From contig NC_057752.1 of the NCBI RefSeq assembly GCF_004010195.1, forward strand, positions 11,379,160 through 11,443,159: a stretch of 64,000 nucleotides of DNA, written 5' to 3'. The notes beneath the pieces are model-generated. The model did not search any database. It was given only the letters and a program-made list of their open reading frames with translations, and was not told the DNA's origin. This document shows, piece by piece, positions 2,051 through 58,223 of this stretch. How positions within the stretch are numbered: the stretch's first letter is position 1; the number at the start of each line of letters is the position of its first letter. Origin of the DNA: Chiloscyllium plagiosum (taxonomy: Eukaryota). A program made the position numbers and the translations under genes.

Positions 2051-2431
2051 TTGGAGGTGCTGGTGTTGGACTGGGCTGTACAAAGTTTAAAAATCACACA
2101 CCAGGTTATAGTCCAACTGTTTTATTTGGAACCACTAGCTTTCGGAGCGCTGCTTCTTCATTGGGTGGTTGTGCCAAGAGGTACTGAGCCAGGGGAGGAA
2201 CCAGCCTTCAGTCTTCTCTTGGGACACTCCAGAGGTCGGCAAGCCCTCCACCCTCTGATCTTTGGAGGTTCACACCAAGGAGGGTGAGAGAGAGAGAGAG
2301 ACAAAGAAGACAACCACCTGATGAAGGGGCAGTGCTCCGAAAGCTAGTGGGTCCAAATAAAACAGTTGGGCTATAACCTGGTGTGTGATTTTTAAACTTT
2401 GTACAGGCCAGTCCAACACCAGCACCTCCAA
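2051..2431. mobile_element. Fold-back repeat, family C: inverted arms 2051-2172 and 2310-2431 around a ~137-bp spacer; hammerhead motif in the right arm
   Basis: The arms are near-perfect reverse complements (TTGGAGGTGCTGGTGTTGGACTGG... / ...CCAGTCCAACACCAGCACCTCCAA). The same family recurs at 25590-25803 and 48404-48586. Confidence 0.8.
2314..2350 (+). ncRNA. Minimal type I hammerhead ribozyme motif (family C)
   Basis: CCAC-CTGATGA-A-GGGGC agt GCTCC-GAAA-GC-TA-GTGG. Stem I is CCAC/GTGG, the core CUGAUGA/GAAA is intact, stem II is GGGGC/GCUCC, helix III is the palindrome AGCU, and the predicted cleavage is after CUA (2346). Activity is not shown. Confidence 0.7.
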
Positions 2432-4989
2432 GGAGAATCTTATTGAAACACAAGATGCTGAGAGGGATCAACAACGCAGATGCTGAAGAGATATTTCCCT
2501 TCAGGTGTAATCTAGGACTCAGACTCAGTTTTGAAATAAAGGATTCTTCAGTTAAGATGAAAATGAGTTATTTCTCCCAGGCAAAATTTGTCTCTGCTGT
2601 CTTGAGTAAAGAATTCCAAAGCACACGCATGTGCACCCTCATGCTGGCAGTTTCCAATTGTGAACCACTTTTTTTTCCAAATTGTTATTGACTGAAAATA
2701 TTCCTCTACTAATATAGGAAAGAAATTAGATATGTGCTTAAGTTCAGAAAGCTGCATGACGAGAAACATATGGCAATTCAAAATAATTTAAATTATCTTT
2801 CTCCCACTCAAGCTGTAAGAGATGGTCAGGAAGCCTTTTTTCAAAGTGATTTGCTCAACTTTTCACAATTATGAAATCATTTTTCTTCATGTTGGGAAAG
2901 ACTCCCATTGCCTCCAATCTACTTGTGACCAAGTAAATGTTCACGCTGCTCACCATTTGTGGTGAACACAGCTCAAATTTTACAGCAGTCTTGTACAAGG
3001 TACTGGGGTGTATCCTGACCTCCTCAACGGTATGTATGTTGAAAGTTGAACAGTTATACATTACAAAGCTTGGGTTCAGCATTTGTTGTTTCGGGTCAAT
3101 TCTCTGCATCATTGGCCTTTTGACATAGTGCTAGCATTTCATGAGGACGGGTGTGGAGGGTGGTGAGCATGCCAGTTTCCCGTCACTATTTTGGGAAGAG
3201 ATAGGTAGGCTCTTAGGTAAATGGCTTTTGGGCTCCTTGTGGCATTGGGAACAAAAATATCTGCTGGGAGGTGTCCTCCCAATGATGGTCTGGGACGGCC
3301 AGTGCTCCAGGCTGCTTTGGGGTTCTTCCCATCTGGCTGGCACTGCTGCAGTCGGAGATTGCCCCAACCCCTTCACAACTTTGGCCCAATTGCTAAGGCC
3401 ATTATGTTTAAGACCAATAAAAGTTGCGAAAAGGGTGCTGCCATTTCGCCACGTCCTCTCCCACAGGCTGAACTTCATTCTGCTGCTTTTACCAAACTGG
3501 AAAACCCCTAGCTTTGAGAACCTGCCCAACATCCTTAATTGGACAACAGTTAACATGCTGCAGCTATTATTTAGCCAGTGCATGGAGCATCACTGTTTCC
3601 CACACGGCGCAAAGTCAAGATCCTTGTTTGACCATGAGTATCAGGCCAAAATCCTGCTCATGATTTTCAAATTCAGAAAGCTTGATTAAAGTTCAAGGTT
3701 CTCCACAGGACAAGGCTGAAATTCTCCAAGTTGTGTTGCAGCTTTCACTATCTGTATGAGTTAATGTTTTCTAATCGGAGGAGTACCCAATTTTGTTTTC
3801 AATAGCTTTGCAGACAAAACTGCACATAATACTGAGATGAGTATATTTCCAGGTAGGATTGTGTTTTGACTTGATTTCTCCTTTTGAAACGTTGTGATAC
3901 TGGAATAGTGTTTTTGAAGTTAATAAAATTAGAAGTATGTGGAATTAGTGGCAACCTTTTGATAGGAATTGGTAAGACTGTCGTACACAACTGGTAGTGA
4001 GTATTTCGAGGAGGGAAGCATTTGCATTCAATAGCACTTTACACGACGCAACCACAATGTCCTTATACACTTCCCAGCTAGCGAAGTACTTTTGAGGTAT
4101 TGTGTGTGGATGGAAGCCATAAATTATACTTAGTGAGTGGTCAAAACTCTGGCAGATTGAGTTCAGTGTGGGGTGTGTAAGGCGAGCCACTTTAGACTAA
4201 CAAAAGAGTTTTGGTTGTTTAAATGGTGAGCTGTTCAGAATTATGGAGGAGAAGCTGAATATTGGGGCTCGGGTGTAAAAGAAAACCACTACAGATCAGT
4301 GAACAAGTACAAACAATTTAAAAAGCAAATTGGATGTTGACTGTTATCCAATGAGGGCTACAATACACAGGGAAGAAATGAGAGTTCAGCTGTACAGAGT
4401 TCTGGTGGCATCCTATCTGGAGTAACCATTTTCTGTTCTGGTACCAGACCTCAAAGTGGGAATAGCAGCCTTGGCGGAGGTGCAGTTAAGTGGGCTACCA
4501 AATAAGTTGAGTAAGCTCGGTTTGATTTCCTTAAGCTATATTCAAAGGCCGGTAGATATCTAGAACTCACTTTCTCCTCCTTCCTCAGCATGCCCCACAC
4601 CACGCCGCCTTTAAAAAAATCTATTGCGACTGGGTCAATTGAAAGTTTGCAAACTAATATTTTAGCCTGAAGATGGTGGGAACCCCACCTGGCTGTAACA
4701 CCTAATTTAGGTCAGAACATTCTAGTTCTAGAACAAAGGCAGGTAGTATGGTATTAAAGTGCAGACCAGTTGTGATCTAACTGGTGGACTGACTTGAGGC
4801 TGCAAGACTAGTTCCTGGTTCTATTTTATATTATTTTGGATTTAGATTTTGTCTTGTGATGAGTAGCTTAGGAACCAGTCATCTCTTTTTATTAATTCTC
4901 ATGCTAAGCTTTTTTATATTTTTTTATCGTGAACGTTTTTCAGTTCATTACATTCATTCCAGTGTAATAATTCATATTTTTCCCTTCAG

Positions 4990-5099
4990 GATGGTCAGAC
5001 CAAGGCTGACGATTTATGTTTGTCAGGAATTACAACAAATTCGAGAGCAGCAGCAACATAAACATGAAAATGGTGATTCTGTAAGCTGTTCTTTCTATG
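4990..5099 (+). CDS. TFCP2: TFCP2 internal coding exon (R)MVRPRLTIYVCQELQQIREQQQHKHENGDSVSCSFY(V)
   Basis: Acceptor tttcccttcag and donor gtaagt. The peptide matches the TFCP2 segment RMVRPRLTIYVCQE...REQQ...KHE.GDS better than the UBP1 or TFCP2L1 equivalents. Phases join with the next exon. Confidence 0.93.
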
Positions 5100-5116
5100 G
5101 TAAGTAAATTTGTGTA

Positions 5117-5309: not shown

Positions 5310-5439
5310 TACCACACTCTAACATACTGAAATCAATTTCATTTGCCATGCTTTGTGCAGGCTTGTCTGGTGGGGGATAAAATGCTCCTCCTTTTGTGTA
5401 TGCATGTATGACATGCAAACCTCTACTTCAAAAGAGGCT

Positions 5440-6554: not shown

Positions 6555-7070
6555 TTGAGTCAGAATGCTCTGTTGGAAGCACATTTCAGATCTCAACGCA
6601 ATTTCAGCTGAGATTTCAACACTGCACTATTTGCTGTATTGCTCATCCTTCCTTCTGATGTGATAAATGGAGGATTCATTGCCTTTGCAGGTTGATGTTA
6701 ACTATGCTGTGTCACTAGTCAAACAACAAGGAGCTCTTCCCATGTCCTTGCCAACGTTCTTTCCTCAAACAGGGTAAATAATCCTGAGGTGAGGGATTCA
6801 AAACCCACAGTGGCAGCTGGTGGAATTTAAATTCACAGAATCAATAAATTTGGAATTAAAAGCTCAATAGATTGACTGACTGAGAAACTAATGGTTTTCA
6901 TTTAAAAAGAAAACCCATCTTGTTCACAGGCATACCTTAGAGAAGGATATCTGTGTTTTTCCTTGGTTTGCCTGATATGTGACACAGTCCCACAGCGATG
7001 TGGCTGGCTCTATTTTAATTGTCCTCTGCATCAATCCGTAATAGCCAATCATGAGGTCCATTAATAAAAC
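6555..7070 (+). mobile_element. Two degenerate SINE remnants (DeuSINE/SacSINE-like at ~6555-6780; a second SINE at ~6786-7070)
   Basis: The first resembles the Deu-domain SINE consensus from memory. The second is similar to the SINE at 42603-42932 (CCCAC..TGGCAGCTGGTGGAATTTAAATTCA). Confidence 0.45.
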
Positions 7071-7120
7071 CAGACAGGAACCTGGCATCAATCTAGGTAC
7101 AAAAGTGACAAAGGCTACCA

Positions 7121-7690
7121 CCTACTTGCGGAACGTTTCAGAGAACACCTCTGGGACACCCGGACCAACCAACCCAACCACCCTGTAGCTCAACATTTCA
7201 ATTCCCCCTCCCACTCCACCAAGGATATGCAGGTCTTTGGACTCCTCCATCGTCAGACCACAACGAAACGACGGTTGGAGGAAGAACGCCTCATCTTCCG
7301 GCTAGGAACCCTCCAACCACAAGGCATGAACTCGGATTTCACCAGTTTCCTCATTTCCCCTCCCCCCACCCTGTCTCAGTCAAATCCATCAAATTCAGCA
7401 CCGCCTTCCTAACCTGAGATCTTCTTCCCGACCTCTCCGCCCCCACCCCAGTCTGACCTATCACCCTCACCTTGACCTCTTTCCACCTATCACATTTCTG
7501 ACGCCCCTCTCCCAAGTCCCTCCTCCCTACCTTTTATCTTAGCCTGCTGGACAAACTTTCCCCATTCCTGAAGAAGGGCTTATGCCCGAAACGTCGATTC
7601 TCCTGTTCCCTGGATGCTGCCTGACCTGCGCTTTTCCAGCAACACATTTCCAGCTCTGATCTCCAGCATCTGCAGACCTCACTTTCTCCT
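7121..7690 (+). mobile_element. 5'-truncated Penelope-like (Neptune-type, family A) element with GIY-YIG C-terminus and hammerhead motif
   Basis: Highly similar to 57658-58223. Encodes ...AERFREHL...RRLEEERLIFRLGTLQPQGMN. Flanked by the direct repeat CAAAGGCTACCACCTAC (7109-7125 and 7691-7707, partly microhomology). Confidence 0.9.
7564..7599 (+). ncRNA. Minimal hammerhead ribozyme motif (family A)
   Basis: ATTC-CTGAAGA-A-GGGC ttat GCCC-GAAA-CG-TC-GATT. The core is intact, helix III is the palindrome ACGU, the cleavage triplet is GUC, and stem I is weak (one mismatch). Confidence 0.65.
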
Positions 7691-13511: not shown

Positions 13512-14301
13512 CAGGAATGAGGCTGAGAGCCTCAGAATAAATGGGGGTGTGGGGCGGTAGGGTTGTGGAGAAGGTAGCTGAGAGTGCAATAGGTGGATGG
13601 AGGTGGGGGTAAAGGCCCCAAAGGAGCCTTCGTCCATCAAAGTTTCACCTGCACTTTCACACGTCATTTGTTGTATCCGTTGCTCCTGATGCGGTCTAAT
13701 CCACATTGGGGAGACTGGATGCCCTCTCGCAGAGCGCTTCAGGGCACGTTTCTGGGACACCTGCACCAATCAACCCCACTGCCCCATGGCCAAACATTTC
13801 AACTCCCCCTCCCACTCTGCTGATGACATGCAGGTCCTGGGCCACCACCACTCCCTCACCACCCAACGCCTGGAGGAAGAATGCCTCATCTGCCTCTGGA
13901 CCCTTCAACTCCACGGCATCAATACGGATTTCACCAGTTTCCTCATTTTCCCCCTCCTTCCAACTTATCCGAGTTCCATTCTTCCAGCTCAGCACTGTCC
14001 TCATGACCTGTCCCACCTGTCAATCTTCCTTCCCATCTATCCGTTTCGCCCTCCTCTCCGACCTATCACCTTTACCCCCACCTCCATCCACCTATTGCTC
14101 GCTCAGCCACATTCTGCCCAGCCCCCCCATCCCTCCCATTTATCTCTCCACCCCCCGAGGCTCCCAGCCTCATTCGTGATGAAGGGCTTTTGCCGTAACG
14201 TTGATTTTCCTGCTTTTTTTGCTGCCTGACCTGCTGTGCTTTTCCAGAAAGACATTAATCTTGACTCCAATCTCCAGCATCTGCAGTACCCACCTCAGCC
14301 T
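13512..14301 (+). mobile_element. Penelope-like element (family A relative) with an inverted 5' segment
   Basis: 13613-14301 encodes GIY-YIG remnants (..AKHFNSPSHSADDMQVLG..RLEEECLI..). 13512-13615 is an inverted copy of its own 3' region (~14070-14180). TTTCCCTCAAC is repeated at both flanks. Confidence 0.8.
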
Positions 14302-14630: not shown

Positions 14631-15988
14631 AAGACCATAAGACATAGGAGTGGAAGTAAGGCCATTCGGCCCATCGAGTCCACTCCGCCATTCAATCATG
14701 GCTGATGTGCATTTCAGCTCCACTTACCAGCGTTCTCCCCGTAGCCCTTAATTCCTCTAGACAACAAGAATCTATCAATCTCGGCCTTGAAGACATTTAG
14801 CGTCCCGGCTTCCACTGCACTCCGTGGCAATGAATACCACAGGCCCACCACTCTCTGGCTGAAGAAATGCCTCCACATTTCTGTTCTGAAATGACCCCCT
14901 CTAATTCTAAAGCTGTGCCCAAGGATTCTAGAATCCCCACCTAACAGAAACAAAAACCCAGCATCCACCCTTTTCAAGCCATGCATTCTATTGTAAGTTT
15001 GTATTGGATGTCCCCTCAATGTTCTAAACTCTAATGAATACAATCTCAGGATCCTCATCAGTTCATCATATGTTAGGCCTAGCATTTCAGGGGTCATCCG
15101 TTTGAATCTCCACTGGACATGCTCCAGTGCCAGTATGTCCTTCCTGAGGAGTGGGGACCAAATCTGGACACAGTACTCCAAATGGGGCCTAACCAGAGCT
15201 TTATAAAGTCTTAGTAGTACATCTCTGCTGTTATATTCCAACCCTCTTGAGATAAGAGACAACATTGCATTCGCTTTCTTAATCACGGACTCAACCTGCT
15301 CTGAAGAAGAACCTTTTATCCCAACTCTCTGCCTTCTGTTAGACAGCCAATCCTCAGTCCATCCCAGCAGCTCACCTCGAACACCATGGGCCCTCACCTT
15401 GCTCAGCAGCCTCCCGTGTGGCACCTTATCAAAGGTCTTTTGAAAGTCTAGATAGACCACATCCACTGGGTTTCCCTGGTCTAACCTACTTGTTACCTCT
15501 TCAAAAAATTCCAACAGGTTTGTCAGGCATGACCTCCCTTTACTAAATCCATGTTGACTTGTTCTAATCAGACTCTGCTCTTCCAAGAATTTAGAAACCT
15601 CATCCTTAATGATGGATTCTAGAATTTAACCAACAACCGAGGTTAAGCTGATTGGCCTATAATTTTCCATCTTTTGCCTTGATCCTTTCTTGAACAAGGG
15701 GGTTACAAAGCCATCTTCCAATCATCCGGGACCTTTCCTGACTCCAGTGACTCTTGAAAGATCTCAACCAATGCCTCTGCTATTTCCTCAGCCACCTCTC
15801 TCGGAATTCTAGGATGTATCCCATCGGGGCCAGGAGATTTATCAATTTTAAGACTTTTTAACTTTTCTAGCACTCTCTCTTTCGTAATGGCAACCATACT
15901 CAACTCAGCCCCGTGACACCCTTTAATTTTTGGGATATTACTCATGTCTTCCACTGTGAAAACTGACACAAAGTACTTGTTAAGTTCT
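14631..15988 (-). mobile_element. CR1-type LINE ORF2 fragment with an internal RT deletion and intact 3' tail
   Basis: ORF 14714-15586 (QHGFSKGRSCLTNLLEFF...VYLDFQKTFDKVPH...LVRPHLEYCVQ) and 15703-15969 (KSPGPDGIHPR). Short TAAGAC tail repeats at ~14631-14645. Confidence 0.92.
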
Positions 15989-34308: not shown

Positions 34309-34689
34309 AACCAGCAGGAGGGTTCCTTGCCCAGGTTTAACCTGAAGCCATGAGACTTCATGGGGTCCAGAGTCAATGCTGAGGACTCCCAGGGTAACTC
34401 TCTCCTGACTGTATCCCATTGTGCCCCCACCTCTGGGTCTGTGGTGCGACAGGATATATCCAGGGATGGTGTTGGTGGTGTCTGAAACATTGTCTGTAAG
34501 GTATGATTCTGAGTGTATGACTATGTCTCATTTGGGCTAACTCTCCCAATATTGATCCTAGATCTCAGATATCATGAAAGAGGACTTGATGGGGTCAACG
34601 GGGTTGTTTCTGCCGTTGTCTTTTCCGGTGCTTATTGTCGATGCTAGGTGATCCGTCTGGTTTCATTTCTTTTGAGACTTTAGTCATTG

Positions 34690-39358: not shown

Positions 39359-40530
39359 GAGGGGAATGGCCTCTCAGGGGAAAGTAGCAGCAGGCTAAAT
39401 TCGATGCACCACTGTTGGCTGCACATGCAGAGAAGAAAGTGTGAGAAGGCAGTAGCAACAGGGGATTCAATTGTAAAAGGAACACCTCCAGATTTTCCAT
39501 GGTAGCACACAAGACTCCAGGAGCTGCCTGGTGGCAGGATGAAGGATGTCTCAGTGCGGCGGCAGGACATGCTGGATTGGGGAGGGTGAACAGCCAGAGG
39601 TTGTGGCACACATTGGGGCCAATGACTTTGGGAAGAAAAGGAATGAGGTGCTGGAAGCAGTATATAGGGAGCTAGGAAGCAAGTTAAAAACTTGGAGATT
39701 AAAGGTAATAATCTCAGGATTCGCCTCTCAAGGGCAACCGGGGGTGAGCAATAAATGCTGGCCAGCCAGCGACACCCAGATTCCACAAGAGAATAAACCA
39801 AATACCAGTGCTACATGCTAGTCAGCGTAAAAATGGCAGGATCTATCAGATGAACAAATGGCTGAAGAGATGATGTGATGGAGAGAGATTCAGGTTCCTG
39901 GGGCATTGGGAGTAGTTCTGAGGAAGATGGGACCAGTACAAACTGGATAGTGAGTGGCAGCCGGCTAGGATCACATGCCAGTGGATGTATTTGCTCGAGT
40001 GGTTGGGGATGGTATAAAGTGGCAAGGGGATGGGAACGTCGACAGTAGAGGGGGAACAAGGGCAAAAACAGAAGACAGAATGGGAAATAGGAAAAGTGAG
40101 AAGCACGGGTGTTAGGGCTGCCCAGTGGCTGAAAGCAACTTAAAATTGTTTTTCCATTCACATCAAATGGCTGGGGAAGATTTTTAGCTGAAGCAGCAGC
40201 TTGTTTGGTTTGATATTTGAAATCGTTCCACCCCAACAAAAGGATTCAAGCAACAGGATAAAACAATGGGACCAGGCTAAAAACATTCAGAGGACGAGCC
40301 TTAAGGCCTTCCCTTAATCCACGGAGCATTTGCAATGAAGTTGGTGAGTTAGTCGTGCACATGGATATTAACAGATCAGATGTAGTTGGGATTATGGAGA
40401 CATGGCTGCAGAATATCGAGGGGGTTTCAGGTTTTAAGGAGTACAGAGAAGAGGAAAAGGAAGTGGGGATCATTGTTGGTTAAACAGGACATCAATGCAA
40501 GTGTGAGGAAGGATATTAGCTCTGGTGAAG
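39359..40530 (+). mobile_element. CR1-type LINE 5' part: ORF1 SGNH esterase and start of the ORF2 endonuclease
   Basis: AVATGDSIVKGT and PEVVAHIGANDFGKKRNEVL..YRELGSKLK..KVIISG (esterase blocks). ..DVVGIMETWL at ~40380-40410. Confidence 0.85.
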
Positions 40531-42999: not shown

Positions 43000-43600
43000 G
43001 AGGACCAAGGGATTGATGAAGAGGAGGGAAATCGAGTACAAGAGTAAGCTCACAGGGAACATACAAACTGATCGTCAAAGTTTCCATAGGCCCTTAGAAA
43101 CAGGAATGTTCTAAACAGGAACAAAGAGATGGCAAACCAATTAAATTCACAAAGGAGGGCACCAATAATGTCCCAAAAATGTTGGGGATCACAGAGTCTA
43201 ATGAGAGGGAGGAACTGAAGGAAATCAGTATTAATAGGGAAATGGTATTGGGCAAATTGATGGATTAAAGGCTGATAAATCCCCAGGGCGACATCCCAGG
43301 GTAGTTGATGAAGTGGCCCTAGAAACAGTGGATGTATTGGTGGTCATCTTTCAGGATTCTTTAGACTTTGGAACAGTTACTATGGATTGCAGAGTAGCTA
43401 ATTTAACCCCATTATTTGAAAAAAGGAAGGTGAGAGGTTGACAGAGTTAGTGTTTCCACAGCAGTGACCCTTCTTCAGAACTTCACTGCACTCGAAACGT
43501 TAACTCTCTCTCTCTCTGCACAGATGCTGCCAGACCGGCTGAGTTTCTCCCGCGATTTCTGTTTACCTTTCAGATTTCCAGCCTCCTCAGCTCTTGGTTT
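43000..43600 (+). mobile_element. CR1 ORF2 fragment (~43000-43430) followed by a family B fold-back remnant (~43435-43600)
   Basis: LKADKSPG...DCRVANLTPLF. GACCCTTCTTCAGAACT / CACTCGAAACGTTAACT arms. Confidence 0.7.
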
Positions 43601-43915: not shown

Positions 43916-44622
43916 TTCCCTTAACGATAATATGCACATTTCATTCAAATGACTCCCTGCTAAAGATAGATATAAATGTTTGAACATTCTATTATGTACC
44001 AGCTCTATTTTTTTTAACACTGAACAGTGCAGAGCACCGTTATGTTCTGCTCAGTCTATCTTGCAAAGGTATTTGCATATATTTTAAAATCAAGACCACC
44101 TTTACAAAAAAGACGTCAGATCGAATCAAACGGGATAAATATCTGGACCATTTCGTGACAGGAAATAAAACCTTTATGAATCAAAGACAAAATAATGACC
44201 TCCTTTTGGTTTCCAACGCTTTGGTGACAAACGATCTTTGTTGTCAGAGACGAAAACAGCAGCAATGTTTGGGTGAATGTGAGGAAACCACTCGCCTGCA
44301 AAACGTAGTAACCGAGGTTCCATAACCCCAACTCAATCGCATTCGGTGCCAGAAAGCTCCATTTGTCTGAGATATGTGTCAGAGACCATTGCCGCTGGGG
44401 AACGTATCTGTTAAACCAAGTTCTAACATATTAATGCCAGACATCACAGTGCTATCAGTTCCTGTGAGGGTGACTGTGGTTTGGTGTTGCTGTATTTGTG
44501 ATTCGCTCGAGATGCAATGAGTCCGTGTTTAACACCAGAGAGCAGATGCAAGATGCCGATCAGAGGAGATTGACTCAGCACTGATCTTGCCCATTCTGTA
44601 GACAAGGAATCTCTCGGGTAAG

Positions 44623-44833
44623 GAGAAAGTGAGGTCTGCAGATGCTGGAGATCAAAGTTGAAACTTTATTGCTGGAACAGCACAGCAGGTCAGGCAGCAT
44701 CCAGGGAACAGGAGATTCGACGTTTCGGGCACAGGCCCTTCTTCAGGAAGAAGGGCCTGTGCCCGAAACGTCGAATCTCCTGTGTTCCCTGGATGCTGCC
44801 TGACCTGCTGTGCTGTTCCAGCAATAAAGTTTC
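44623..44833. mobile_element. Young family A fold-back mini-element with a 14-bp TSD
   Basis: Arms 44659-44744 and 44747-44834 are reverse complements except for a 2-nt indel. TSD ATCTCTCGGGTAAG (44609-44622 and 44834-44847). Hammerhead motif on the minus strand at 44715-44750. Confidence 0.92.
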
Positions 44834-45420
44834 ATCTCTCGGGTAAGTCCCTGCTGAATAAATGAGAAGCAAGCAGGCTGGAGAAATGGGAATGTTGTTA
44901 ATTGGGAGGCAAGTTCTTCACACCGACGGGCTATTTTACAACCCTGCCTAGATGTTTCTTTAAAAAAAAAAGCACAGAGCCTTCGTTCAGGGTGCTGTGA
45001 TTCTTGCTGGCTTCACCCTTTCTCCAACATTACTCTCCACGTAGGCGCACCCACCCTGCTGCTGATGGGGATTTTCACGTTGATACTGAGGAACACTCCT
45101 GTGTCAGTGGCGGAGGGATTGGACGCCGAAGGTGCTGCATGTGATGGCAGTAAAGCAGGAGGCTGTGGGTTCTGGGTGTTTCTTGGAAGTTGTTTGAGTC
45201 ACGCTTGTCCAGAAAAAGGGAGACGATTCCATCTCATTCCTGACTTGGAGCTGGTGGGGCGGATTCGAGTGGACAGGAAATAAATTACTTTGCAGAATAC
45301 GCCCAACCTCTGACCTGTTCTTTCAGTGAGAACATTTCTCTGGCTACCTGAGGATTGGTTAGAATAGGACGCTTGGGTAGGTATATGAATAGGAAGGGTT
45401 TTAGAGGGATATGGGCAAAG

Positions 45421-46397
45421 GGTCTACTTTTTGTCATTTACATAAATGATTTGGATGCGATCATAAGAGGTACAGTTAGTAAGTTTGCAGATGACACCAA
45501 AATTGGAGGCGTAGTGGACAGCGAAGAGGGTTACCTCAGATTACAACAGGATCTTGACCAGATGGACTGAGAAGTGGCAGATGGAGTTTAATTCAGATAA
45601 ATGCCAGGTGCTGCATTTTGGGAAAGCAAATCTTAGCAGGACTAATACACTTTATGGTAAGGTCCTGAGGAGTGTTGCTGAACAAAGAGACCTTGGAGTG
45701 CAGGTTCATAGCTCCTTGAAAGTGGAGTCGCAGGTAGATAGGATAGTGAAGAAGGTGTTTGGTATGCTTTCCTTTATTGGTCAGAGTATTGAGTAGAGGA
45801 GTTGGGAGGTCATGTTGCGGCTGTACAGGACGTTGGTTAGACCACTGTTGGAATATTGCTTGCAATTCTGTTCTCCTTCCTATCGGAAAGATGTTGTGAA
45901 ACTTGAAAGGGTTCAGAAAAGATTTACAAGGATGTTGCCAGGGTTGGAGGATTTGAGCTATAGGGAGAGGCTGGACAGGCTGGGGCTGTTTTCCCTGGAG
46001 TGTCGGAGGCTGAGCGGTGACCTTATAGAGGTTTACAAAATCATGAGGGGAATGGATATATGTTCCTCATGTGGACTCTTTTCCCTGAGGTGGGGGAGTC
46101 CAGAACTAGAGGGCATAGGTTTAGGGTGAGAGGGGAAAGATATAAAAGGGACCTAAGGGGCAACTTTTTCACGCAGAGGGTGGTACGTGTATGGAATGAG
46201 CTGCCTGAGGAAGTGGTGGAGGCTGGTACAATTGCAACATTTAAGAGGCATTTGGATGGGTATATGAATAGGAAGGGTTTGGAGGGATATGGGCCGGGTG
46301 CTGGCTGGTGGGACCAGATTGGGTTGGGACATCTGGTCGGCATGGATGGGTTGGACCGAAGGGTCTGTTTCCGTGCTGCCCATCTCTATGATTCTAC
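45421..46397 (+). mobile_element. Young 5'-truncated CR1-type (HER1-like) LINE
   Basis: LFVIYINDLD..SKFADDTKIGG, LYRTLVRPLLEYC and RTRGHRFRVRGERYKRDLRGNFFTQRVV. CTCTATGATTCTA tail. Confidence 0.93.
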
Positions 46398-47340
46398 GGT
46401 TTGCCAATTTCTGCTCACCCCGCAGGTTCGATTCTCACACTGACTAAAGGGAGCATCAAGAGCTCTCTTTCCCAATCTTTCCCCTCCCTTGAGGCACGAT
46501 GACCCCCAGGTTAAACCACCACCCCGTCGCCCGTGTTTCTCCCTAATGAGAGAGCCGCCCTAAGGTCCATTCGGGCTTTACCTTCCCTTTATATACCTGT
46601 TCAGTTTCTGAAATTAGTGCTCCTTCATTGAACTGGAGAGAAATCTTTCTTTTCTCTCAGAAAAGGTTTACTGGAGCTGATTTATGACCTGCGAGAAATG
46701 AGAGAATTGAGTTCCATCATGGATTAGCATGAGCTGTTCTGGTTAAAAACCGTTAAGTGTGACTGTATTAAGGTCGAAGTGTTATCCCGTTTTGCTCCCT
46801 CCACAAATAATTTTTAAATCTGGGTCATTTTCAGTTCGGTTAGCCGACTGCTGTGTTATACGTGTAAGGCATTTTATTTAAATGATAATTGAGCAATTCG
46901 GGCAGGACTGAAATAGCAGCAGAATCGCGGAGAGACGCATTTAATACGTGGTGAGGTGTAATTCAAAGAATTTCGCAGTGATGGGACGAGGCAATGTTAG
47001 ATATTATTCCAAAATTCGTGCATATTCCATGGAACTAGGAACTGCGAGCGCATGTCGAGAACAGTTAATGAAACATAGGTTTTAGATACTTCGTTGTTCA
47101 GGACAGAAACGGGTAACTTCTGCTGAACCTGTGTAAATACCTGCTTCAGCTGATATTGTTGTCTTCGGTTCTGCTGACAACATTTTCGGAAGGATAGGAG
47201 GGTGTTTGAATGATTCGATGGAGTAGTTTACGGGAAGTTAGAAGCCCACCCTGATGTTAGTTTATATTTAATGGCGTTGCGATGAAAATGGAGGTGAATG
47301 CAGGCCATGCCTATTGGAGATAGTGTAGACCAACACTACC

Positions 47341-47468
47341 CTGGTGAAGGGCTCTTACCCGAAACCTGGACTCTCCTGCTCCCTCGGATGCTGCCTGACC
47401 TGCTGTGCTTTTCCAGCACCACCCTCTCGACTCTGATCTCCAGCATCTTCAAGTCTTCACTTTCTCCG
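47341..47468 (+). mobile_element. Family A 3'-end fragment
   Basis: CTGGTGAAGGGCTCTTACCCGAAACC...CTCCAGCATC..CACTTTCTCC. The hammerhead core is mutated. Confidence 0.75.
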
Positions 47469-47899
47469 AGACAAACACACTATGTCAGCTGAAAATTCAC
47501 GGTTGTCCGGTTGTAAGCTTTCTGTGAGAGCCACAGGTCTGGTCCTGTTGGGGAGGATTGGTGTCATTCAATGAGTCCGTTACCGGCACTTGGCTCACCA
47601 ATTGCTGACTATGTCAATCTCCCTGTCCAGGAGATGGATCCATGTATCTACATCGTGTCCTGTCTGAGACTGACAGAAAGGTCTACCCTCGCGTCGATAA
47701 TAACAATAATAAAAATAAACTGCTGGAATATCAGAAACAAAGCAGAAATTGCTGGACAAAGCTCAGCAGGTCTGGCAGCATCCAGGGAGAGAAAGCAGAA
47801 TTATCATTCAGAGAGTGAAATCCTGCCGAGGGTCTCTGGACCCCAAATGCTAACTTTGCTTTCCCCCCGACAGAGCCAGCAATTTCTGCTTTTGAACCT

Positions 47900-48403: not shown

Positions 48404-48586
48404 ATGATGTGGAGGTGCCCCTGTTGGGATGGAAGAGTGTGATGCTGGAAAAGCACAGCCGGTCAGGCAGCATCCAGAGGTGCAGGAGAGTCAACGTTTC
48501 GGGCATAAGCCCTTCATCAGGACAAAGTTAAAAAAAATCACCCAACACCAGATTATAGTCCAACAGGTTTATGTGGAAGTACATTT
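48404..48586 (-). mobile_element. Family C terminal fragment containing a nested family A fragment (~48431-48520)
   Basis: TSD GGCCGATATCT (48393-48403 and 48587-48597). The C-type sequence (GGAGGTGCC..TGTTGG / ACAAAGTTAAAAA..CACC..TTATAGTCCAACAGGTTTA) is split by an A-type segment. Confidence 0.75.
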
Positions 48587-48959: not shown

Positions 48960-49740
48960 TTATTGACAAAAATAAGTCATTTTAAGATATTGAAGTGCTG
49001 CCTGTTAACAGAGAAGTGCAGATACTACACAATTGATGAAAAATAAAGTTGTAACGATATGACCAGCAACTTTTGTCTCACCAATATAACCCCCATTGAT
49101 GGGGGAACATCAGGATTAATAACCAGAGGTAAACGTAACAGTTACTTTGGAACATTTCATGCAACTCAAGATTGACATTTTGACTAAAATCTAACTTGGC
49201 TGAATTTAAAAAAAAATGTTTGATGTTTGCAAAAAGAAAAGAAGAAAGAATCTCCAGAAAACGTTTGACTACGGTCCTCACAGGAGCCTTCGGTTTGATA
49301 GAACAGTCAGTTGTAGGACGTATGGAAGAAAGTAAGGGTCAATAGGCTGAAGGTAGTGGTGGATATTGTATTTTTTGAACGAGGGAAAATCTCGAGGGTC
49401 TTCGGGGTTGTTGTCGGCGGGGTGGGGGGGTTCTCTGATTAGTTTGACATCCATTGGGAGTGGGGAAGTGGTGAGCAAAATCCCAAAACAGCGGAGTAAA
49501 CCAGAACTGGGAGACCTTGAGAACTGTTAAGAGGACAATGTTCAAAGGCGGACAACACAGAAAGCGTGAAGGACTAATTGGGAGATGGACGGATAGAATT
49601 GAATGCATGGAGGTGCAAAGTGGTTCCATTTTGTTGGAAATGAATACGAGGAGTGTCAACAAAGGGGAACAGGTCGACTGCGCAGTTCGAAGCCAAACCA
49701 GCCTGTAATAAAGTTCACGTTCCGAGTCTAGTGGCCCTTC
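48960..49740 (-). mobile_element. Degenerate L1/Tx1-like ORF2 C-terminal remnant
   Basis: Minus-strand GPLDSERELYYRLVWLR resembles the L1 GGL.LP...YY motif. Heavily disrupted. Confidence 0.35.
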
Positions 49741-50297
49741 TGACTCTCCACAAATCCTGCCCACATTTGCTGAGTTTCACCAGCAATTCTGTTTTTGTTT
49801 CTGCACAGTTTTATTTACAGGGTTTTTTTTTAACTAAATTCGTTACATGTGGCAGGTCATATTGGAGCGCGGTCATCAAAACGTAAAGGATTCGCGGGCT
49901 TTATATATTGGAGTTTATGGAAACCAAGCCAAGCACGTTCTGAAGAATTGCTGAATACACAGATAGTCCTCAACTCGATTATTCTGTTTATTATTATTCA
50001 GATCTCCGGCACCTGCAGTTGTTTATTTTATTTTGTAGCTTCCATGTTATGAGTTGCTCAACTTGCAAGAACAACATATTTAGCAGCAAGATGTCTTCTG
50101 CAGAGGAGCTGCAATTTGCCTACCAAGAAACGGAGTGGAAAAATGTCGTGAGGAGGGCTAGATGTCTTGCCTGCCACGAGATCTGATAGTGATTCCCAGC
50201 GAAATTCCCGGTGACACCGCCAGTTAGAATGAAGTACGGTGCTTGTTGTGAAATAATTTCTTCATATATTCAGTGAGATCGGACCCACTTTCTCGTC

Positions 50298-50340
50298 ATG
50301 AGGAGTTGGATGTTCATTTCCCTCCTGATATTGACAGAAG
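50298..50340 (+). CDS. Siglec/MAG-like Ig gene, signal-peptide exon MRSWMFISLLILTE(G)
   Basis: ATG at 50298, hydrophobic leader, phase-1 donor G|GTATGT in frame with the V-set exon. Confidence 0.8.
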
Positions 50341-50904
50341 GTATGTTTCTTACCTTTCAGTAATGGTCCACTGGCGTTAATTTCGGTCATTTAGGCATAT
50401 TGTTCCTTTCAGAAGAACGGTCACTGGACTCGAAACGTTTTTTTTTTCTCCACAGGTGCTGCCAGACCTGCTGAGGTTCTCCAGCTATTTCTGTTTTTGT
50501 TTAGGATATTCTCTCAGGCACATTTCATTGATCATTTGTGTGAATATAAAGAGATAGACACTTCGTGAATGTAGAAGCGGGCTTAGCAGTTATAATTCAA
50601 TGTGCTTATCTGTCTATCGGTCTTTTCATTTGGATGCAGCGTATGTTCTATTACATAGTAACTAACATTGAAATTCATGTTTGAATTTATTTAAGGGCAA
50701 TTTAGTGTTTTTTTTCTGTTGTGTTTTTATTGACTTATCATGAACTTCACTGAATATTGCAGAGCTTGATTTTTAATGGGTCTGCATATTTGTTGAGTTT
50801 TAAGTGTGCGTATAGTTGACTTATAAATCGGACATGGAATCGATGCACGAGTGAACAGTTTAGTAACCACCCTTGGTATTATCGAATGGTTTTGCAAAAT
50901 ACCT

Positions 50905-51194
50905 TACCTGGAGACTAGGACCCGTGGACACAGCCTTAGAATTAGGGGGGGGGGGGGTAAATTCACAACAGAAATGCGGAGACATTTCTTCAGCCAGAGA
51001 GTGGTGGGCCTGTGGAATTCATTGCCACAGAGTGCAGTGGAGGCTGGGACGCTAAATGTCTTCAAGGCAGAGATTGATAAATTCTTGATGTCACAAGGAA
51101 TTAAGGGCTACAGGGAGAATGCGGGTAAGTGGAGTTGAAATGCCCATCAGCCATGATTGAATGGCCTTACTTCCGCTCCTATGTCTTATGGTCT
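50905..51194 (+). mobile_element. CR1-type LINE 3' end in the intron after the leader exon
   Basis: Same family as 14631-14950, in reverse orientation. TCTTATGGTCTT tail. Confidence 0.9.
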
Positions 51195-51295
51195 TCAATT
51201 GTGATTGCGATTGTTAACACTGAAGTATGTTTAAGGAATTGCAATCATTTAAAAAAAAATCTAACTAAAGCAATTGTATTTTTTTGATTTCTCAG

Positions 51296-51664
51296 GTATT
51301 TCTGGAGATCAGTGTTCTGTGATAGTGCCAGAACATGCCTTGGCTGTAGTTGGTGGGTGTGTAGAAATCCAGTGTACTTTTGATCATACGATCAATTATA
51401 CCTACAGAAAAGCAATATGGATTAAAAAAGGTGTTAATGCTATGAAGCCCAGTGCCTCGGTCCTTTATGATTCAGAACATCCAAGCAACCAACAGAGTGA
51501 CTATTGTGGGAGGGTTGTATTCACTGGTGACTTTGGAAAAACACAATGCTCCCTTCTCCTAAACGATATTAGGAAGACTGATGAGGGAACCTATCAAGTC
51601 ATTCTGGTATTCGTTTCAGAAGTCAACGTCACTGAACATTCTGAGTTCAATATCTCTGTTTCAG
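51296..51664 (+). CDS. Siglec/MAG-like Ig gene, N-terminal V-set domain exon
   Basis: Acceptor tttctcag and donor G|gtgagt. The 369-nt phase 1-1 exon is open: GISGDQCSVIVPEHALAVVGGCVEIQCTF...AIW...GRVVFTGD...CSLLLNDIRKTDEGTYQVI...FNISVS. It has the Siglec GxCVxIxCxF and CSL/DxGxY pattern. Confidence 0.9.
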
Positions 51665-52219
51665 GTGAGTGTGCCTGTATTTTGTTTACTATTCTCGTTC
51701 AAGTACTTCATTTTGAATCCTTGCTATTTCAAATTGCTCAATATCCTAATGTCCCAGACGATCTCAAATAAGACGAAGAGAGACAGAGTTCAGTCCTGAG
51801 GAAAGGTCACCAGACCCGAAACGGTAACTCTGATTTCTCTGCTGCCTGATCTGCTGAGCTTTTCCAGCAACTTCAGTTTCTGTTAACGTTTCGGGACCCC
51901 CATCAGCTCTCAAATTGTTGCTAAAACAAGAGAGACAGGAACCAGAGACCAGAGGACATTAAACAGAATAATGATGATGAAAGTAAACTAAGGATTAATG
52001 TTGGAGAATATATAATATTCACAGATCCATGATGTTGCTATATCACTCCGAGGAATTGTTTAGAATAGCAAGCTCCTTGCAATGTACATCCGAAAACAAA
52101 GATCAACGTATCATTTGAAAAAAAGAAAACCGAATGTTGTTTTGCTGATCTAGTTGAAAACTTCTTTCGCATTTAAAAAGACAAACCATTCTAACAGACC
52201 TTCCCTGCTTCACTTACAG

Positions 52220-52519
52220 AAAAACCAACCATTTCACATGTTGGAGAAATTATTGCAGGCCAAATTGTACGATTGAAATGCTCGGTCAGTCAGAACTGCC
52301 CGAATGGCAACCTACAATTGAAATGGACTTATCACAACCAGTCAATTCCTCTTCAATGGGACGCCGAAGGAAAAGATGAAAGTTCGAATTCTCGGACAGT
52401 TTCATCCGTGCTAACATTGATTCCATCAGCTGTCAATCACGGGACAATGCTCAAATGTACAATTACAAGCGACAGCTTCCAAATTTCCTCTCCTGAAACT
52501 CTCATCTTGCAGGTTAAGT
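52220..52519 (+). CDS. Siglec/MAG-like Ig gene, C2-set domain 2 exon
   Basis: Acceptor cacttacag and donor T|gtgagt. The 300-nt phase 1-1 exon reads (E)KPTISHVGEIIAGQIVRLKCSVSQNCP...LKW...SVLTLIPSAVNHGTMLKC...LILQVK. The C-x5-CP motif is typical of Siglec domain 2. Confidence 0.9.
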
Positions 52520-53059
52520 GTGAGTGCTTGTTTCAAAGATCGTCATTCTTAGATGTTGTACCCAGCTTTTTTTTTTACTGGCTGTAGGTTAGCTCAGTTG
52601 GATGGCTGGTTTCTGGTACAGACTAACCCTAACAGTGTGGGTTCTATTCCCACATCAGCTGAAGTTGCCATAAAGGATTAAGCCCCCTCTCCTGAGGGGT
52701 GCGTGACCATCTAGTTAGACCACCAATCAGTTGCTTCTCCTTAATGAGATAGCAGCTCCATTGTCAAGTTGGACAATGATAACTTTATGAAGAATTAAGT
52801 GGCTCTTTAGCCTTTGTTGCGAAATTGTTCTACATGCATCGTCGTCTGTTCTACGACAAATAACCCATGAATTGGTGCGTGATTTGGGACTTCAGAATAA
52901 TCAATCCCGAAAATAGTCAAATGCATTCAAGTCCTTAATCTGAACATGATTTCCACATGACAGATGGTAGCACTGCCTGGGAATCAGAATGGGTCCTCAT
53001 TCTCATAGAACAGTCCAGCACAGGCCCTTTGGCCTTCAATGTTGTGCCGCCCTGTTATC

Positions 53060-54897
53060 CTTAGGGACAGCTGGAAAATGGGAAGCCTTCAAAAATCAGA
53101 TAACTAGAGTCCAGAGACAGTATATTCCTGTGCGGGTGAAAGGAAAGGCTGGTAGGTGCAGAGAATACTGGCTGACGAGAGAAATTGAGGGTTTGGTTAA
53201 GAAAAAGTAGGAAGCAGATATCAAGTATAGACAGCAGAGATCGTGTTAATCCTTCGAAGAGTATAAAGGCAGTAGGAGTATACTTAAGAGAGAAATCAGG
53301 AGGGCAAAAAGGAGACATGAGATAGCTTTGGCAAATAGGGTTAAGGAGAATCCAAAGACATTTTATAAATACATTAAGGACAAAAGGATAACTAGGGAGA
53401 GAATAGGTCCCCTCAAAAATCAGTAAGACGGCCTTTGTGTGGAGCCACAGGAGATGGGGGAGATACTAAACGAGTATTTTGCATCAGTGTTTACCGTGGA
53501 GAAGGACATGGAAAATATGGAATGTAGGGAAATAGATGGTGACATCTTGAAAGGTGTCCATACTACAGAGGAGGAGGTACTGGATGTCTTGAAACACATA
53601 AAAGTGGATAAATCCCTAGGACCTGATCAGGTATTCCCTCGAACGCTGTGGGAAACTAGGGAAGTGTTTGCTGGGCCTCCTGCTGAGATGTTTGTATCAT
53701 CGATAGTTGCAGGTGAGGTGCCGGAAGACTGGAGGTTGGCAAACGTGGTAGACTGATTAGCAAGGTTAGAGATCACGGAATACAGGGAGATCTAGCCATT
53801 TGGATACAGAATTGGCTCAAAGGTAGAAGACAGAGGGTGGTGGTGGAGGGGTTGCTTTTCAGACTGGAGGCCTGTGACCAGTGGAGTGCCACAAGGATTG
53901 GTGCTGGGTCCACTACTTTTTGTCATTTATATAAATGATTTGGATGTGAGCATAAGAGGTATATTTAGTAAGTTTGCAGATAGCATCAAAACTGGAGGTG
54001 TAGTGAATAGCAAAGAAAGTTACCTCAGAGTACAACGGGATCTTGATCAGATGAGCCAGTGGGCTGAGGAGTGGCAGATGGAGTTTAATTTAGATAAGTG
54101 TGAGGTGCTGCATTTTGGGAAAGCAGATTTTAGCAGGACTCACTTAATGGTAAAGTCCTCGGGAGTGTTGCTGAACAAAGAAACCTTGGAGTGCAGGTTC
54201 ATAGTTCCTTAAAAGTAGAGTTTCAGGTAGATAGGATAGTGAAGAAGGCGTTTGGTATGCTTTCCTTTATTGGTCAGAGCATTGAGTATAGAAGTCGGGA
54301 GGTCATGTTGCGGCTGTACAGGATGTTGGTTAGGCCACTGTTGGAATATTGCGTGCAATTCTGGTCTCCTTCCTATCAGAAAGATGTTATGAAACTTGAA
54401 AGGGTTCAGGAAAGATTTGCAAGGATGTTGCCAGGGTTGGAGGATTTGAGCTATAGGGAGAGGCTGAATAGGCTGGGGTTTCTTTCCCTGGAGCATCAGA
54501 GGCTGAGGGGTGACCTTATAGAGGTTTATAAAATCATGAGGGGCATGAATAGGGGAAATGGACATGGTCTTTTCCCTGGGATGGGGGAGTCCAAACCTAG
54601 AGGACATAAGTTTAGGGTGAGAGGTGAAAGATATAAAAGGGACTTAAGGGCAACGTTTTCACACAGAGGGTGGTACTCGTACAGAATGAGCTGCCAGAGC
54701 AAGTGGTGGAGGCTGGTACAATTGCAGTATTTAAAAGACATCTGGATGGGTATATGAATATGAAGGGTTTAGAGGGATATGGGCCAAGTGCTGGCAAGTG
54801 GGACTAGATTAGGTTAGGATATCTGGTTGGCATGGACGAGTTGGACCGAAGGGTTTGTTTTCTGCTGTACATCTCTATGACTCAATGACTCTACTCT
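53060..54897 (+). mobile_element. CR1-type LINE ORF2, 5'-truncated with an internal deletion
   Basis: ORFs 53439-53756, 53874-54212 (SGVPQGLVLGP, SKFADS) and 54191-54757. CTCTATGACTC tail. Confidence 0.93.
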
Positions 54898-54899: not shown

Positions 54900-55890
54900 G
54901 ATCAGACTAACCTACGCACCTTTTGATTGTATTATCATCCATGTGCCTATCCAAGAGTTGCTTAAATGTCCCTCATGTCTCTGACTCCGGTACCACTGCT
55001 GGCAGTGCATTCCACACACCCACCACTCTCTGTGTAAAGAACTGACCTCTGACATCTCCCCCAAACCTTCCTCCAATCACCTTAAAACTATGCCCCCTTG
55101 TGACAGCCATTTCTGCTCTGGGAAAATGTCTCTGGTTGTCCACTCCATCTATGCCTCCCATCATCTTGTACACTTCTATCAAGTCACCTCTCATCCTCCT
55201 TCGCTCCAATGAGAAAAGCCCTAGCTCCCTGAACCTTTCTTCATAAGACATGCCCTCCAGTCCAGGCAGCATCCGAGTAAATCTCCTCTGCACCCTCTCT
55301 AAAGCTTCCACATCCTTCCTATAAGGAGGTGACCAGAACTGAACACAATATTCCAGATGTGGTCTAACCAGGGCTCTGGAGAGCTGCACCATAACCTCGC
55401 AACTCTTAAACTCAATCCCCCTGCCAATGAAAGCCAACACACCATATGTCTTCTTAACAACCCTGCTAGACAAAAGTGAGGACTGCAGATGCTGGAGATC
55501 AGAGCCTAGATTCGAGTGGTGCTGGAAAAGCACAGCAGGTCAAGCAGCATATGAGGAGCAGGAAAATCGACGTTTCGGGCAAAAGCCCTTCATCAGGAAT
55601 GAATCATTCCTGATGAAGGGCTTTTGCCCAAAACTTCAATCTTCTTAACAACCCTGTCAGCTTAGGTGACAACTTTGAGGGGTCTATGGACATGGACCCC
55701 AAGATCCCTCTGTTCCTCCACACTGTCAAGAATCCTGCCTTTCACCCTGTATTCTGCATTCAAATTCGACCTTACAAAGTGAATCACGTCACACTTTTCC
55801 AGTTTGAACTCCATCTGCCACTTCTCAGCCCAGTTCTGCATCCTGTCAATGTCCCATTGCAACCTGCAACAGCCCTCCACACTATCCACC
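54900..55890 (-). mobile_element. CR1-type LINE 3' fragment, tail-to-tail with the preceding CR1
   Basis: ORF 54973-55533 (ALVRPHLEYCVQFWSP...TRGHSFKV) and 55662-55889 (WAEKWQMEF). Confidence 0.92.
55466..55639. mobile_element. Family A fold-back mini-element with a 17-bp TSD inside a CR1
   Basis: TSD TCTTCTTAACAACCCTG (55449-55465 and 55640-55656). Centre CCCTTCATCAGGAATGA-A-TCATTCCTGATGAAGGG. Intact hammerhead core on the minus strand at 55565-55600. Confidence 0.9.
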
Positions 55891-57382
55891 GCTCAAAGCA
55901 CCTTCAACAACGAGCACATAGCAATGAACTGGGTGTAGGGATGGTGTTGCTGGGTGTGTTTGTTTCACGTTTTATGTCGGTGAATTAGCTTTGAAGCAAT
56001 GTCCACCGAGTGTGAATAGGAATTATTCATTCCCAATTTAAATACAGACTCTCTCCTGCTAATGTATAGGGAGGTCAGCTCATCATTGTCATAGTGCTTT
56101 CCCACCCATGCCAGTTTATGATGGGTGAGTGTTGTAAATCTATCAGTGAGTTTATGGCAGGCCCTCTCTAGCTCGTATCCCACATCATTACTTCAACAGC
56201 TGTTGGTGTATCATGATACTCAGTGTTGTTTCCATGTGTGGAGATCAATATTTTGAAAACAAAACAATCTCAACTTCGCAAGCAGCGATTAAATAAAAGA
56301 TGGACAATATTTAATTTTCACAACCTAAAACCTTTCCCGTAACAAGGAAATGATACTCTCCCAAAAAAACCTGATCCCTCTCAGCTCTACTCCCAGAGCT
56401 GTGATGATGGTTCCTATTCCTGCTGATGTGCCATGCCTTTCTTCCGGAGCTTTCTCAGTGTCACTCCGGTCTGCCCCCACCATCTGCACTTTCACTGCAA
56501 GAGAAACAGCGATTGCTGCATCTGTGGAGAGAGAGAGAGAGTTAACATTTCGAGTCTATTTCTGAAGAAGTCCTGCTGGACTCGAAGCGTTAACTCTGTT
56601 TCATTGATGAGCCTCTGTCTTCCGAGTCACCTGTGGTCACAGGCTTACTTCCATTTCACAGAAATGAAGCGAGTTTTTCCATCCTCTCTCAACGCAGCCC
56701 ACCTCCCCCCCCCCCCCTCCAAAAACACAGCGCACAGTGGCCTGATGTCTTTTTATCAGGTTAAAATAAATTTATAAACACAGCGCAGACAGCAGTTCTC
56801 CAACAACAGTTTTCCGAGACCCAGCTCTGAGTTTAAAGCGATCAATGTGAATTCCACCACATCGTTTGCTGTACACATGAACAGGACTATGTCATTCAGT
56901 CCATCAAGAATTCATTGCTTTTCAAAAAGACCATGACTTATCTAATTGTAGCCTCAAAATCGAATTCATTCCCACTTCTGATACCTTTCAACCCCACAGT
57001 GAACAAAACTCTACCTCTCACACCAATCCATACCCTCACGAGTATCATGATGAATCTTTGATACTCCATTGGAAACAAGCCTGGCCTGCCCAACCTTTCC
57101 ATCCCAGGTGTTAGCCCATGAACTTTCCCCAGATTGCCTCCATCACAATTCCATTCTTCCTTTAATAAGGTGACCAATACTGATTCCAGTCATCCAGATG
57201 CAGTCTCACTAGAGTCTTTAATAACTGAAACCTAATGTACCGACTTTTGCATTCAGTTCCCCTCATGATAAACGATAGCCATTCCCTTTCCTGATTACTT
57301 GCTGCGGCTATACATTAGCCATTTTGTGATTCATGCATGAAGACACCCAGGTCCCTGTGCATTTCAGACTTCTGCAAAATAT

Positions 57383-58223
57383 TTCCCTCCCCACCCCTAT
57401 CAGCGTTCCGAAAAGACCACTCCCTCCGTGACTCCCTCGTCAGGTCCACACCCCCGACCAACCCAACCTCCACTCCCGGCACCTTCCCCTGCAACCGCAA
57501 GAAATGCAAAACTTGCGCCCACACCTCCCCCCTTATTTCCCTCCAAGGCCCCAAGGGATCCTTCCATATCCGCCACAAATTCACCTGCACCTCCACACAC
57601 ATCATTTACTGCATCCGCTGCACCCGATGTGGCCTCTTCTATATTGGAGAGACAGGCCGCCTACTTGCGGAACGTTTCAGAGAACACCTCTGGGACACCC
57701 GGACCAACCAACCCAACCACCCCGTGGCTCAACACTTCAACTCCCCCTCCCACTCCACCAAGGACATGCAGGTCCTTGGACTCCTCCATCGCCAGACCAT
57801 AGCAACACGACGGCTGGAGGAAGAGTGCCTCATCTTCCGCCTAGGAACCCTCCAACCACAAGGGATGAACTCAGATTTCTCCAGTTTCCTCATTTCCCCT
57901 CCCCCCACCTTGTCTCAGTCCCAACCCTCAAACTCAGCACCACCTTCCTAACCTGCAATCTTTTTCCTGACCTCCACCCCTACTCCGGCCTATCACCCTC
58001 ACCTTAACCTCCTTCCACCTATCGCATTTACAAAGCTCGTCCCCCAAGTCCCTCCTCCCTACCTTTTATCTTAGCCTGCTTGGCACACTCTCCTCATTCC
58101 TGAAGAAGGGATCATGCCCGAAACGTCGATTCTCCTGCTCCTTGGATGCTGCCTGACCTGCTGCGCTTTTCCAGCAACACATTTTCAGCTCTGATCTCCA
58201 GCATCTGCAGTCCTCACTTTCTC
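57383..58223 (+). mobile_element. Penelope-like element (Neptune-type, family A), 5'-truncated, with an open GIY-YIG endonuclease frame
   Basis: ORF ...GTFPCNRKKCKTCAH...FTCTSTHIIYCIRCTRCGLFYIGETGRLLAERFREHL...VAQHFN...LGTLQPQGMN: a Cys-rich linker plus GIY-YIG. TSD CTTCTGCAAAATAT (57369-57382 and 58224-58237). Confidence 0.95.
58096..58131 (+). ncRNA. Minimal hammerhead ribozyme motif (family A)
   Basis: ATTC-CTGAAGA-A-GGG atcatg CCC-GAAA-CG-TC-GATT, downstream of the GIY-YIG stop codon. Stem II is shortened. Confidence 0.6.

Follow-up and report, generated by a model that had tools for sequence, protein, structure and literature searches.

Short repeats in a 64,000-nucleotide stretch of the Chiloscyllium plagiosum genome (NC_057752.1, forward-strand positions 11,379,160 to 11,443,159; hereafter the window) carry genuine minimal type I hammerhead ribozymes, which sit in the pseudo-long terminal repeats (pseudo-LTRs) of Neptune-type Penelope-like elements (PLEs). 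Three families in the window, A, B, and C, would be the hammerhead-bearing pseudo-LTRs of three such element families, and we consider it likely that most of their copies are run-off complementary DNAs (cDNAs), made from the capped 5′ leader of element RNA that had not been cleaved.

A hammerhead secondary-structure descriptor returned 46 matches in 864 kb, made up of the window and 800 kb of evenly spaced genome stretches, as compared with none in the reversed sequence and 0, 0, 0, 0, and 1 in five shuffled versions; chance is thereby excluded. An earlier sequence-only reading of the window had proposed a search with hammerhead models. In a second sample of 1.72 Mb, which includes loci selected by pattern, the descriptor found 276 matches and none in the control, and position 3–8 is paired in 266 of these partly selected matches. 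Exact cores, counted across the 3.56-Gb genome with the reversed pattern as control, number 86,527 for family A (stem II left free), 2,464 for family C (one C form), and 104 for family B, with zero in each control, and pseudo-LTR pieces of all kinds amount to roughly 950,000 (extrapolated from 258 in 965 kb). The anticipated genome-wide abundance is thus borne out, and the consensus for family B, drawn up by eye from the window, has intact counterparts elsewhere in those 104 matches. An Rfam scan of the window matched no hammerhead model; its microRNA matches are head-to-head pairs of copies. The motifs of the families contain the minimal type I core, for which C3UGANGA9, G12AAA15.1, and U16.1 H17 were required, and 22 of 77 whole-motif A copies retain it intact.

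Base pairs tabulated on seven natural representatives differ between families. In helix I, 2.1–1.1 is CG or UA, 2.2–1.2 is UA, AU, or CG, and 2.3–1.3 is UA, GC, or CG; in stem II, 10.3 is GC or AU and 10.4 is CG, UA, or GC; and the 3–8 pair of the core is CG or UA. All variable pairs of helices I and II are kept paired except for a U.U in subfamilies A1 and A3, in agreement with the covarying stems described previously. Two details of that description need correction: the ATTC/GAAT helix I ascribed to family A is confined to subfamily A2, the commonest A forms having the U.U mismatch at helix I position 3, and the fourth helix I pair ascribed to family C (CCAC/GUGG) is a variant of the copy at 2314 that is found in only 2 of 30 genome copies, the usual form being CAC/GUG followed by C.C.

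Two further hammerhead families were identified. Family E, a sister of B, has 1,302 exact copies genome-wide (examples L281–L300) and none found in the window; its core reads UUGACAA, with U3–A8 for C3–G8, and its helix I is the palindrome AGCU/AGCU. Family D, with its long stem II and U bulge, lies beside a different PLE-like open reading frame (ORF; loci outside the window are L143, L148, L177, and L194). The U3–A8 swap, together with the kept 3–8 pairing, suggests that the catalytic fold is under selection while elements are active. The 15.1–16.1 palindrome is ACGU or AGCU, and one extra base follows A9, which is A in families A, B, C, and E and U in family D. The palindromic helix III and extra A reported earlier therefore hold for A, B, and C, in line with published features (PMC4209133, in its available parts), with U replacing the A in family D.

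The same portions of that study describe metazoan PLE minimal hammerheads (Cervera and De la Pena, 2014) that, like those found here, have a type I core without a real helix III, an extra base between 9 and 10.1, a G10.1–C11.1 pair, and a palindromic 15.2–16.2, and that form covarying families of mostly single dispersed motifs, including those of Neptune and Poseidon of fishes. The U3–A8 variant of family E is reported there in Schistosoma. Stems are shorter in our families, and the 86,527 exact A cores compare with about 4,000 copies in coelacanth and about 9,000 in Xenopus, counted by different methods. The available text neither names sharks nor maps the 5′ ends of copies.

Longer copies reveal the host elements. 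In a full-length A element (L237), a pseudo-LTR beginning 15 bases before the core is followed by a tail that continues in frame into an ORF with reverse transcriptase (RT) and GIY-YIG, and a second pseudo-LTR follows. In a long C element (L324 and L279), the tail runs up to an ATG at +121, the first codon of a PLE-like N-terminus (positions are numbered from core base C3). Both elements thus share the order pseudo-LTR, hammerhead, 90- to 125-base tail, and ORF with RT and GIY-YIG, which agrees with the initial attribution to Penelope-type elements. Longer C copies have GIY-YIG about 700 bases upstream of the hammerhead, and many of 30 protein-selected loci carry RT and GIY-YIG followed by a C pseudo-LTR on the same strand (for example L253, L262, L271, L273, L277, L278, and L280). 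For family B, GIY-YIG remnants lie upstream of the pseudo-LTR in 3 of 30 loci and at 61799–61948 of the window; GIY-YIG and the thumb region were found in the B loci examined, and the RT core was not seen in them. A cysteine-rich C-x4-C-x2-C linker occurs in loci of both A and C as well as in the B locus L081. A zinc-finger-like linker of this type between RT and endonuclease marks Neptune and is shared with Nematis (PMC8557442, available parts), and on the strength of this linker A, B, and C appear to be Neptune-type.

The three families had been taken for independent lineages, which overstates their separation. A and B have a common tail downstream of the ribozyme, which makes them relatives, and the endonuclease remnants of the two resemble each other at about 40%. 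A and C proteins share about 30% identity, and C is, judging by these comparisons, a separate family of the same clade type. Typical PLE traits were found throughout: pseudo-LTRs, 5′ truncation, inverted 5′ copies, and an optional 30- to 40-base tail. An inverted partner accompanies 57 of 137 A copies and 23 of 67 C copies, and short copies end at two tail positions, about +85 to +90 and +121 to +126.

To locate where copies begin, we used only the tail (+45 to +85) as anchor, sampled 965 kb in stretches set at even intervals, and aligned the copies with ORF-linked references; 33 of 291 anchors (at a region edge or without alignment) and 9 adjoining assembly gaps were dropped. The 5′ ends fall within −9 to +2, at the 5′ edge of helix I, in 53 of 137 A copies and 24 of 67 C copies. 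This corresponds to stop rates of 7.9% versus 0.7% per base in family A (Fisher p 3e-24) and 8.0% versus 1.1% in family C (p 4e-9). The A peak is alike in copies with short (28/71) and long (25/65) tails, so position, not length, sets the 5′ end. A start of short copies at the predicted cut, between +27 and +28, was considered and rejected in favor of this edge. Target duplications were recovered in 7 of 23 young peak copies by a relaxed search (1.6% in the control), and a strict search found few.

A copied cap leaves an extra G. Among the first 100 listed of 1,224 A2 matches, counted by hand, 58 have a G directly before the start, as compared with 26% expected (p 8e-12) and 0 of 69 long A copies. 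A TATAWA motif lies upstream at −36 to −42 in 22 of 29 C references, at −35 in both E references, and at −31 and −33 in the two B references; TATA and an initiator have also been noted in a rotifer pseudo-LTR (PMC3846280, available parts). Taken together, starts at the 5′ edge, the extra G, and, for B, C, and E, a TATA box some 30 bases upstream fit a capped, uncleaved RNA that was copied to its start. Four public runs, labeled with three organism codes, show a pile-up of loose read ends and contig ends at the same −4 position. One raw run and contigs guessed to be RNA cover both strands and read through into unrelated flanks, without end piles.

Fusions with U6 bear on cleavage. Hammerhead cleavage leaves a 5′-OH. 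Our sample of 40 stretches covered 42 of 48 U6 matches, the six in a presumed gene cluster on C25 being excluded, and in 4 of the 40 U6 copies the U6 is fused to an A tail whose first base is exactly +28, immediately past the predicted cut. The four junctions carry four different tails and show no microhomology; none lies elsewhere in the pseudo-LTR (4/4 at +28, p about 1e-5), and ordinary A copies start at +28 in 3 of 137 cases. A gapped genome search with the U6 end and one A-tail variant returned only L360, already in the set. These junctions suggest, from their position in the genomic sequence, occasional ribozyme cleavage in the germ line. U6 chimeras with other RNAs are frequent: about 15 of the 40 copies are followed at or near the 3′ end by the start of an abundant tRNA-like short interspersed element (SINE; among others L332, L333, L337, L342, L345–L352, and L355). 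At L328, a U6 copy is followed by tRNA-like sequence. RtcB joins U6 to 5′-OH RNA in human cells, and the resulting chimeras with the long interspersed element LINE-1 (Moldovan et al, 2019; PMC6789731, available parts) likewise consist of the U6 3′ end and a retroelement RNA that were then inserted; in contrast, the RNA joined to U6 here is Penelope-like, with a junction fixed at the ribozyme site.

In the mechanism that we favor, transcription would start at the 5′ edge of helix I, directed in B, C, and E by the TATA box. The element RT would then start inside the tail, copy to the cap, and add a G, whereas long copies would arise if RT either started in the downstream pseudo-LTR or jumped to the RNA 3′ end. 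The ribozyme, probably acting as a dimer or aided by protein, would cut only a minority of transcripts, whose 5′-OH product would occasionally be ligated to U6, presumably by RtcB, before insertion. Both an RT start inside the tail and protein-assisted cleavage are known from the anole Poseidon element PAc (Frangieh et al, 2024; PMC11167929, to the extent of its available text). In PAc, as here, the tail is the 5′ part of the transcript, there are two RT start sites with an optional 30- to 40-base extension, and the hammerhead lies just upstream. PAc belongs to Poseidon rather than to the Neptune type, however, and its ORF starts inside the hammerhead, as opposed to +121 (C) or later (A) in our families; run-off copies at a capped start and U6 fusions are not described for it in that text. 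Neither the PLE ribozymes of sharks nor run-off copies, a cap G, or fusions with U6 in PLEs were the subject of any paper found by our literature search, although supplements and subscription papers may hold such data. A more far-reaching version likens the pseudo-LTR to the retroviral U3-R-U5, with the promoter in the 3′ untranslated region (UTR), the hammerhead from cap to cut as R, and the tail as U5. Strong-stop DNA from the tail would jump to the ribozyme-made RNA 3′ end, failed jumps would account for nearly a million cap-marked short insertions, and the scissile-bond U6 fusions would be a genomic record of germ-line cutting by vertebrate minimal hammerheads. We put this forward tentatively, as possible but rather doubtful.

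Several observations weigh against the run-off explanation, some of which concern the 5′ ends and others the ribozyme. The 5′ peak of family B is weak (8/36, in old copies), the extra G is weak in the E and C samples (4/19 and 4/12) and could be an untemplated addition, and a poly(A) single-cell run (2% read, possibly from a related species) showed no end piles at the cut or at −4. TATAWA was found in 0 of 41 A references. The same elements might instead owe their pile-up of 5′ ends to shielding by element protein bound to the folded hammerhead, to trimming down to the base of helix I, or to RT drop-off, the G being untemplated. Such processing or protection would agree with the missing TATA box of family A, with a peak at the first base of helix I in families that differ in sequence, and with the Penelope element of D. 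virilis, which has a TATA-less internal promoter and an intron ending at helix I (PMC2377424, PMC4209133). Yet the C peak reaches −8/−9, past its three-pair helix and in step with a TATA box at −40, and the G bias is strong and confined to a single position; we regard this alternative as unlikely.

As to the ribozyme, copies starting at the cut site are not in excess (0.9% per base, p 0.56), and the available text of the anole study, like the single-cell run, reports no pile of read ends there, as well as an insertion in vitro that does not need cleavage (PMC11167929). For the A forms that are most common, an inactive monomer is the better fold. U6 is also fused to inner ORF positions in 2 of 40 copies, and to other repeats, so template switching occurs in this genome. 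The motif could accordingly have been kept as a protein-binding or RT-start signal that hardly cleaves in vivo, with the U6 fusions produced by RT template switching at the structure. The missing excess at the cut, the insertion without cleavage, and the weak activity of metazoan minimal hammerheads (PMC4209133, available parts) would all suit this view, which is nevertheless improbable given the U3–A8 compensation within the catalytic core and the placement of four of four U6 junctions precisely on the scissile bond, with no microhomology and at what is otherwise not a stop site. A last possibility, close to the earlier idea of family C as a non-autonomous, retrozyme-like family, is that C, or short copies generally, propagate themselves from their own masters as a non-autonomous retrozyme- or SINE-like family. 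Most copies indeed lack an ORF, retrozymes stem from pseudo-LTRs (bioRxiv 10.64898/2026.07.22.740005, available parts), and one direct tandem pair occurs among 30 C loci. However, C copies grade into 3′ UTR, GIY-YIG, and RT, as expected of the 3′ end of a Neptune-type element, the upstream promoter region is missing from short copies, and no tandem arrays were found in the window; this is the least credible explanation. The non-LTR retrozymes of that preprint also have a type I hammerhead and a pseudo-LTR origin, and one chondrichthyan case is reported, but they are tandem units, each with a ribozyme and without an ORF, whereas our families are dispersed, often head-to-head, and ORF-linked. 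The tandem pair itself (L017/L018; G000:C1:17711312, 17711667) repeats a 355-base unit of TATA region, hammerhead, and tail and is a candidate dimer or retrozyme seed.

The window contains 34 pseudo-LTR pieces (14 A, 15 B, and 5 C), well above the 11 copies listed by the sequence-only reading. The A and C copies on that list lie where it placed them, with CUGANGA-A-stem II-GAAA-NN-UH, and its cuts after 2346, 7595, and 58127 are correctly placed; however, stem II of the copy at 58096 contains an A.G mismatch, and the copy at 25687 lacks the 5′ strand of helix I. A short C copy (2310–2431, +), composed of the hammerhead at 2314–2350 with its predicted cut after 2346 and a tail, begins 8 bases upstream of C3, is preceded by a G, and is head-to-head with a C copy with a mutated core (2046–2173, −). 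Two more short C copies are head-to-head at 25599–25802 (25599–25685, −; 25686–25802, +). Family D is represented by a repeat whose hammerhead middle is deleted (1671–1760, +), next to a remnant (1743–1937, −) of the ORF that accompanies it at other loci; this remnant matched neither Pfam nor the Neptune-type P0004, and we provisionally take it, from general resemblance, to be Poseidon-type.

Four family A elements retain more than the pseudo-LTR. A 5′-truncated one (7068–7660, +) consists of a GIY-YIG remnant, 3′ UTR, an intact hammerhead at 7564–7599 with its predicted cut after 7595, and tail. Older ones with GIY-YIG remnants lie at 13603–14287 (+), with a decayed hammerhead, and at 62647–63052 (−). 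The element at 57319–58225 (+) comprises an ORF, 3′ UTR, the hammerhead at 58096–58131 (predicted cut after 58127), and a tail to 58225. Its 210-codon open stretch includes the CxxxxCxxC linker and a GIY-YIG domain (PF01541, E 2e-4, 22.1 bits, just below the 22.6 cut-off), and its closest named proteins are from Chiloscyllium punctatum and Rhincodon typus. Shorter A copies include one whose partner is cut by an assembly gap (33633–33716, −), a head-to-head A2 pair (44622–44837) with an intact core at 44715–44750 (−), a head-to-head A3 pair (55481–55640) whose copy at 55565–55600 (−) is intact, and an intact A-type hammerhead (48438–48522, −), absent from the earlier list, whose helix I is GUC/GAC and which has U17. 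The family B element (61362–61948, −) has a GIY-YIG remnant (61799–61948), 3′ UTR, a decayed hammerhead at 61511, and a tail. The proposed GIY-YIG link of A and B thus stands, but the B copy concerned is the previously unlisted 61362–61517 (−), the listed one at 62385 being part of its head-to-head neighbor, a decayed short copy (62370–62458, +). Other B copies are a decayed short one (26986–27106, −), head-to-head pairs at 43442–43582 and 56515–56602, and decayed copies within 49707–51884 (a pair at 49707–49803; 50412–50501, +; 51784–51884, +). A and B occur together at 27123–27412 (head-to-head A pair 27123–27223, −, and 27231–27319, +, then a B copy, 27326–27412, +) and at 47340–47863 (decayed A copy 47340–47467, +, and B pair 47721–47803, −, and 47829–47863, +).

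Since neighboring copies are mostly head-to-head, they would form hairpins rather than tandem dimers; the pairs at 44622–44837, 25599–25802, 55481–55640, and 27123–27319 would give long hairpins if transcribed, which could feed small-RNA silencing of the elements. The repeats sit in and around introns of an immunoglobulin-superfamily gene with exons at 51265–51771 and 52195–52587 (+; CD22-like V-set, then C-type domain). The window also contains numerous decayed LINE RT fragments, presumably CR1/L2-like (for example 14714–15625, 45400–46370, and 53400–54760), and two assembly gaps, near 33740–34310 and 38860–39360.

The motifs first seen in the window are therefore a known ribozyme class (PMC4209133, available parts), correctly recognized in a new host, and the inference about family C was wrong. 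The role of PLE hammerheads, together with in vivo cutting by their weak animal versions, is treated as an open question in the available parts of recent work (PMC8557442, PMC11167929). End-mapping adds to this a sharp start at the 5′ edge of the ribozyme, a cap-like G, and U6 at the cut, and provides exact positions for cap mapping and cleavage assays. With some 950,000 pseudo-LTR pieces, this genome holds enough copies for the RNA intermediates of these elements to be read from DNA.

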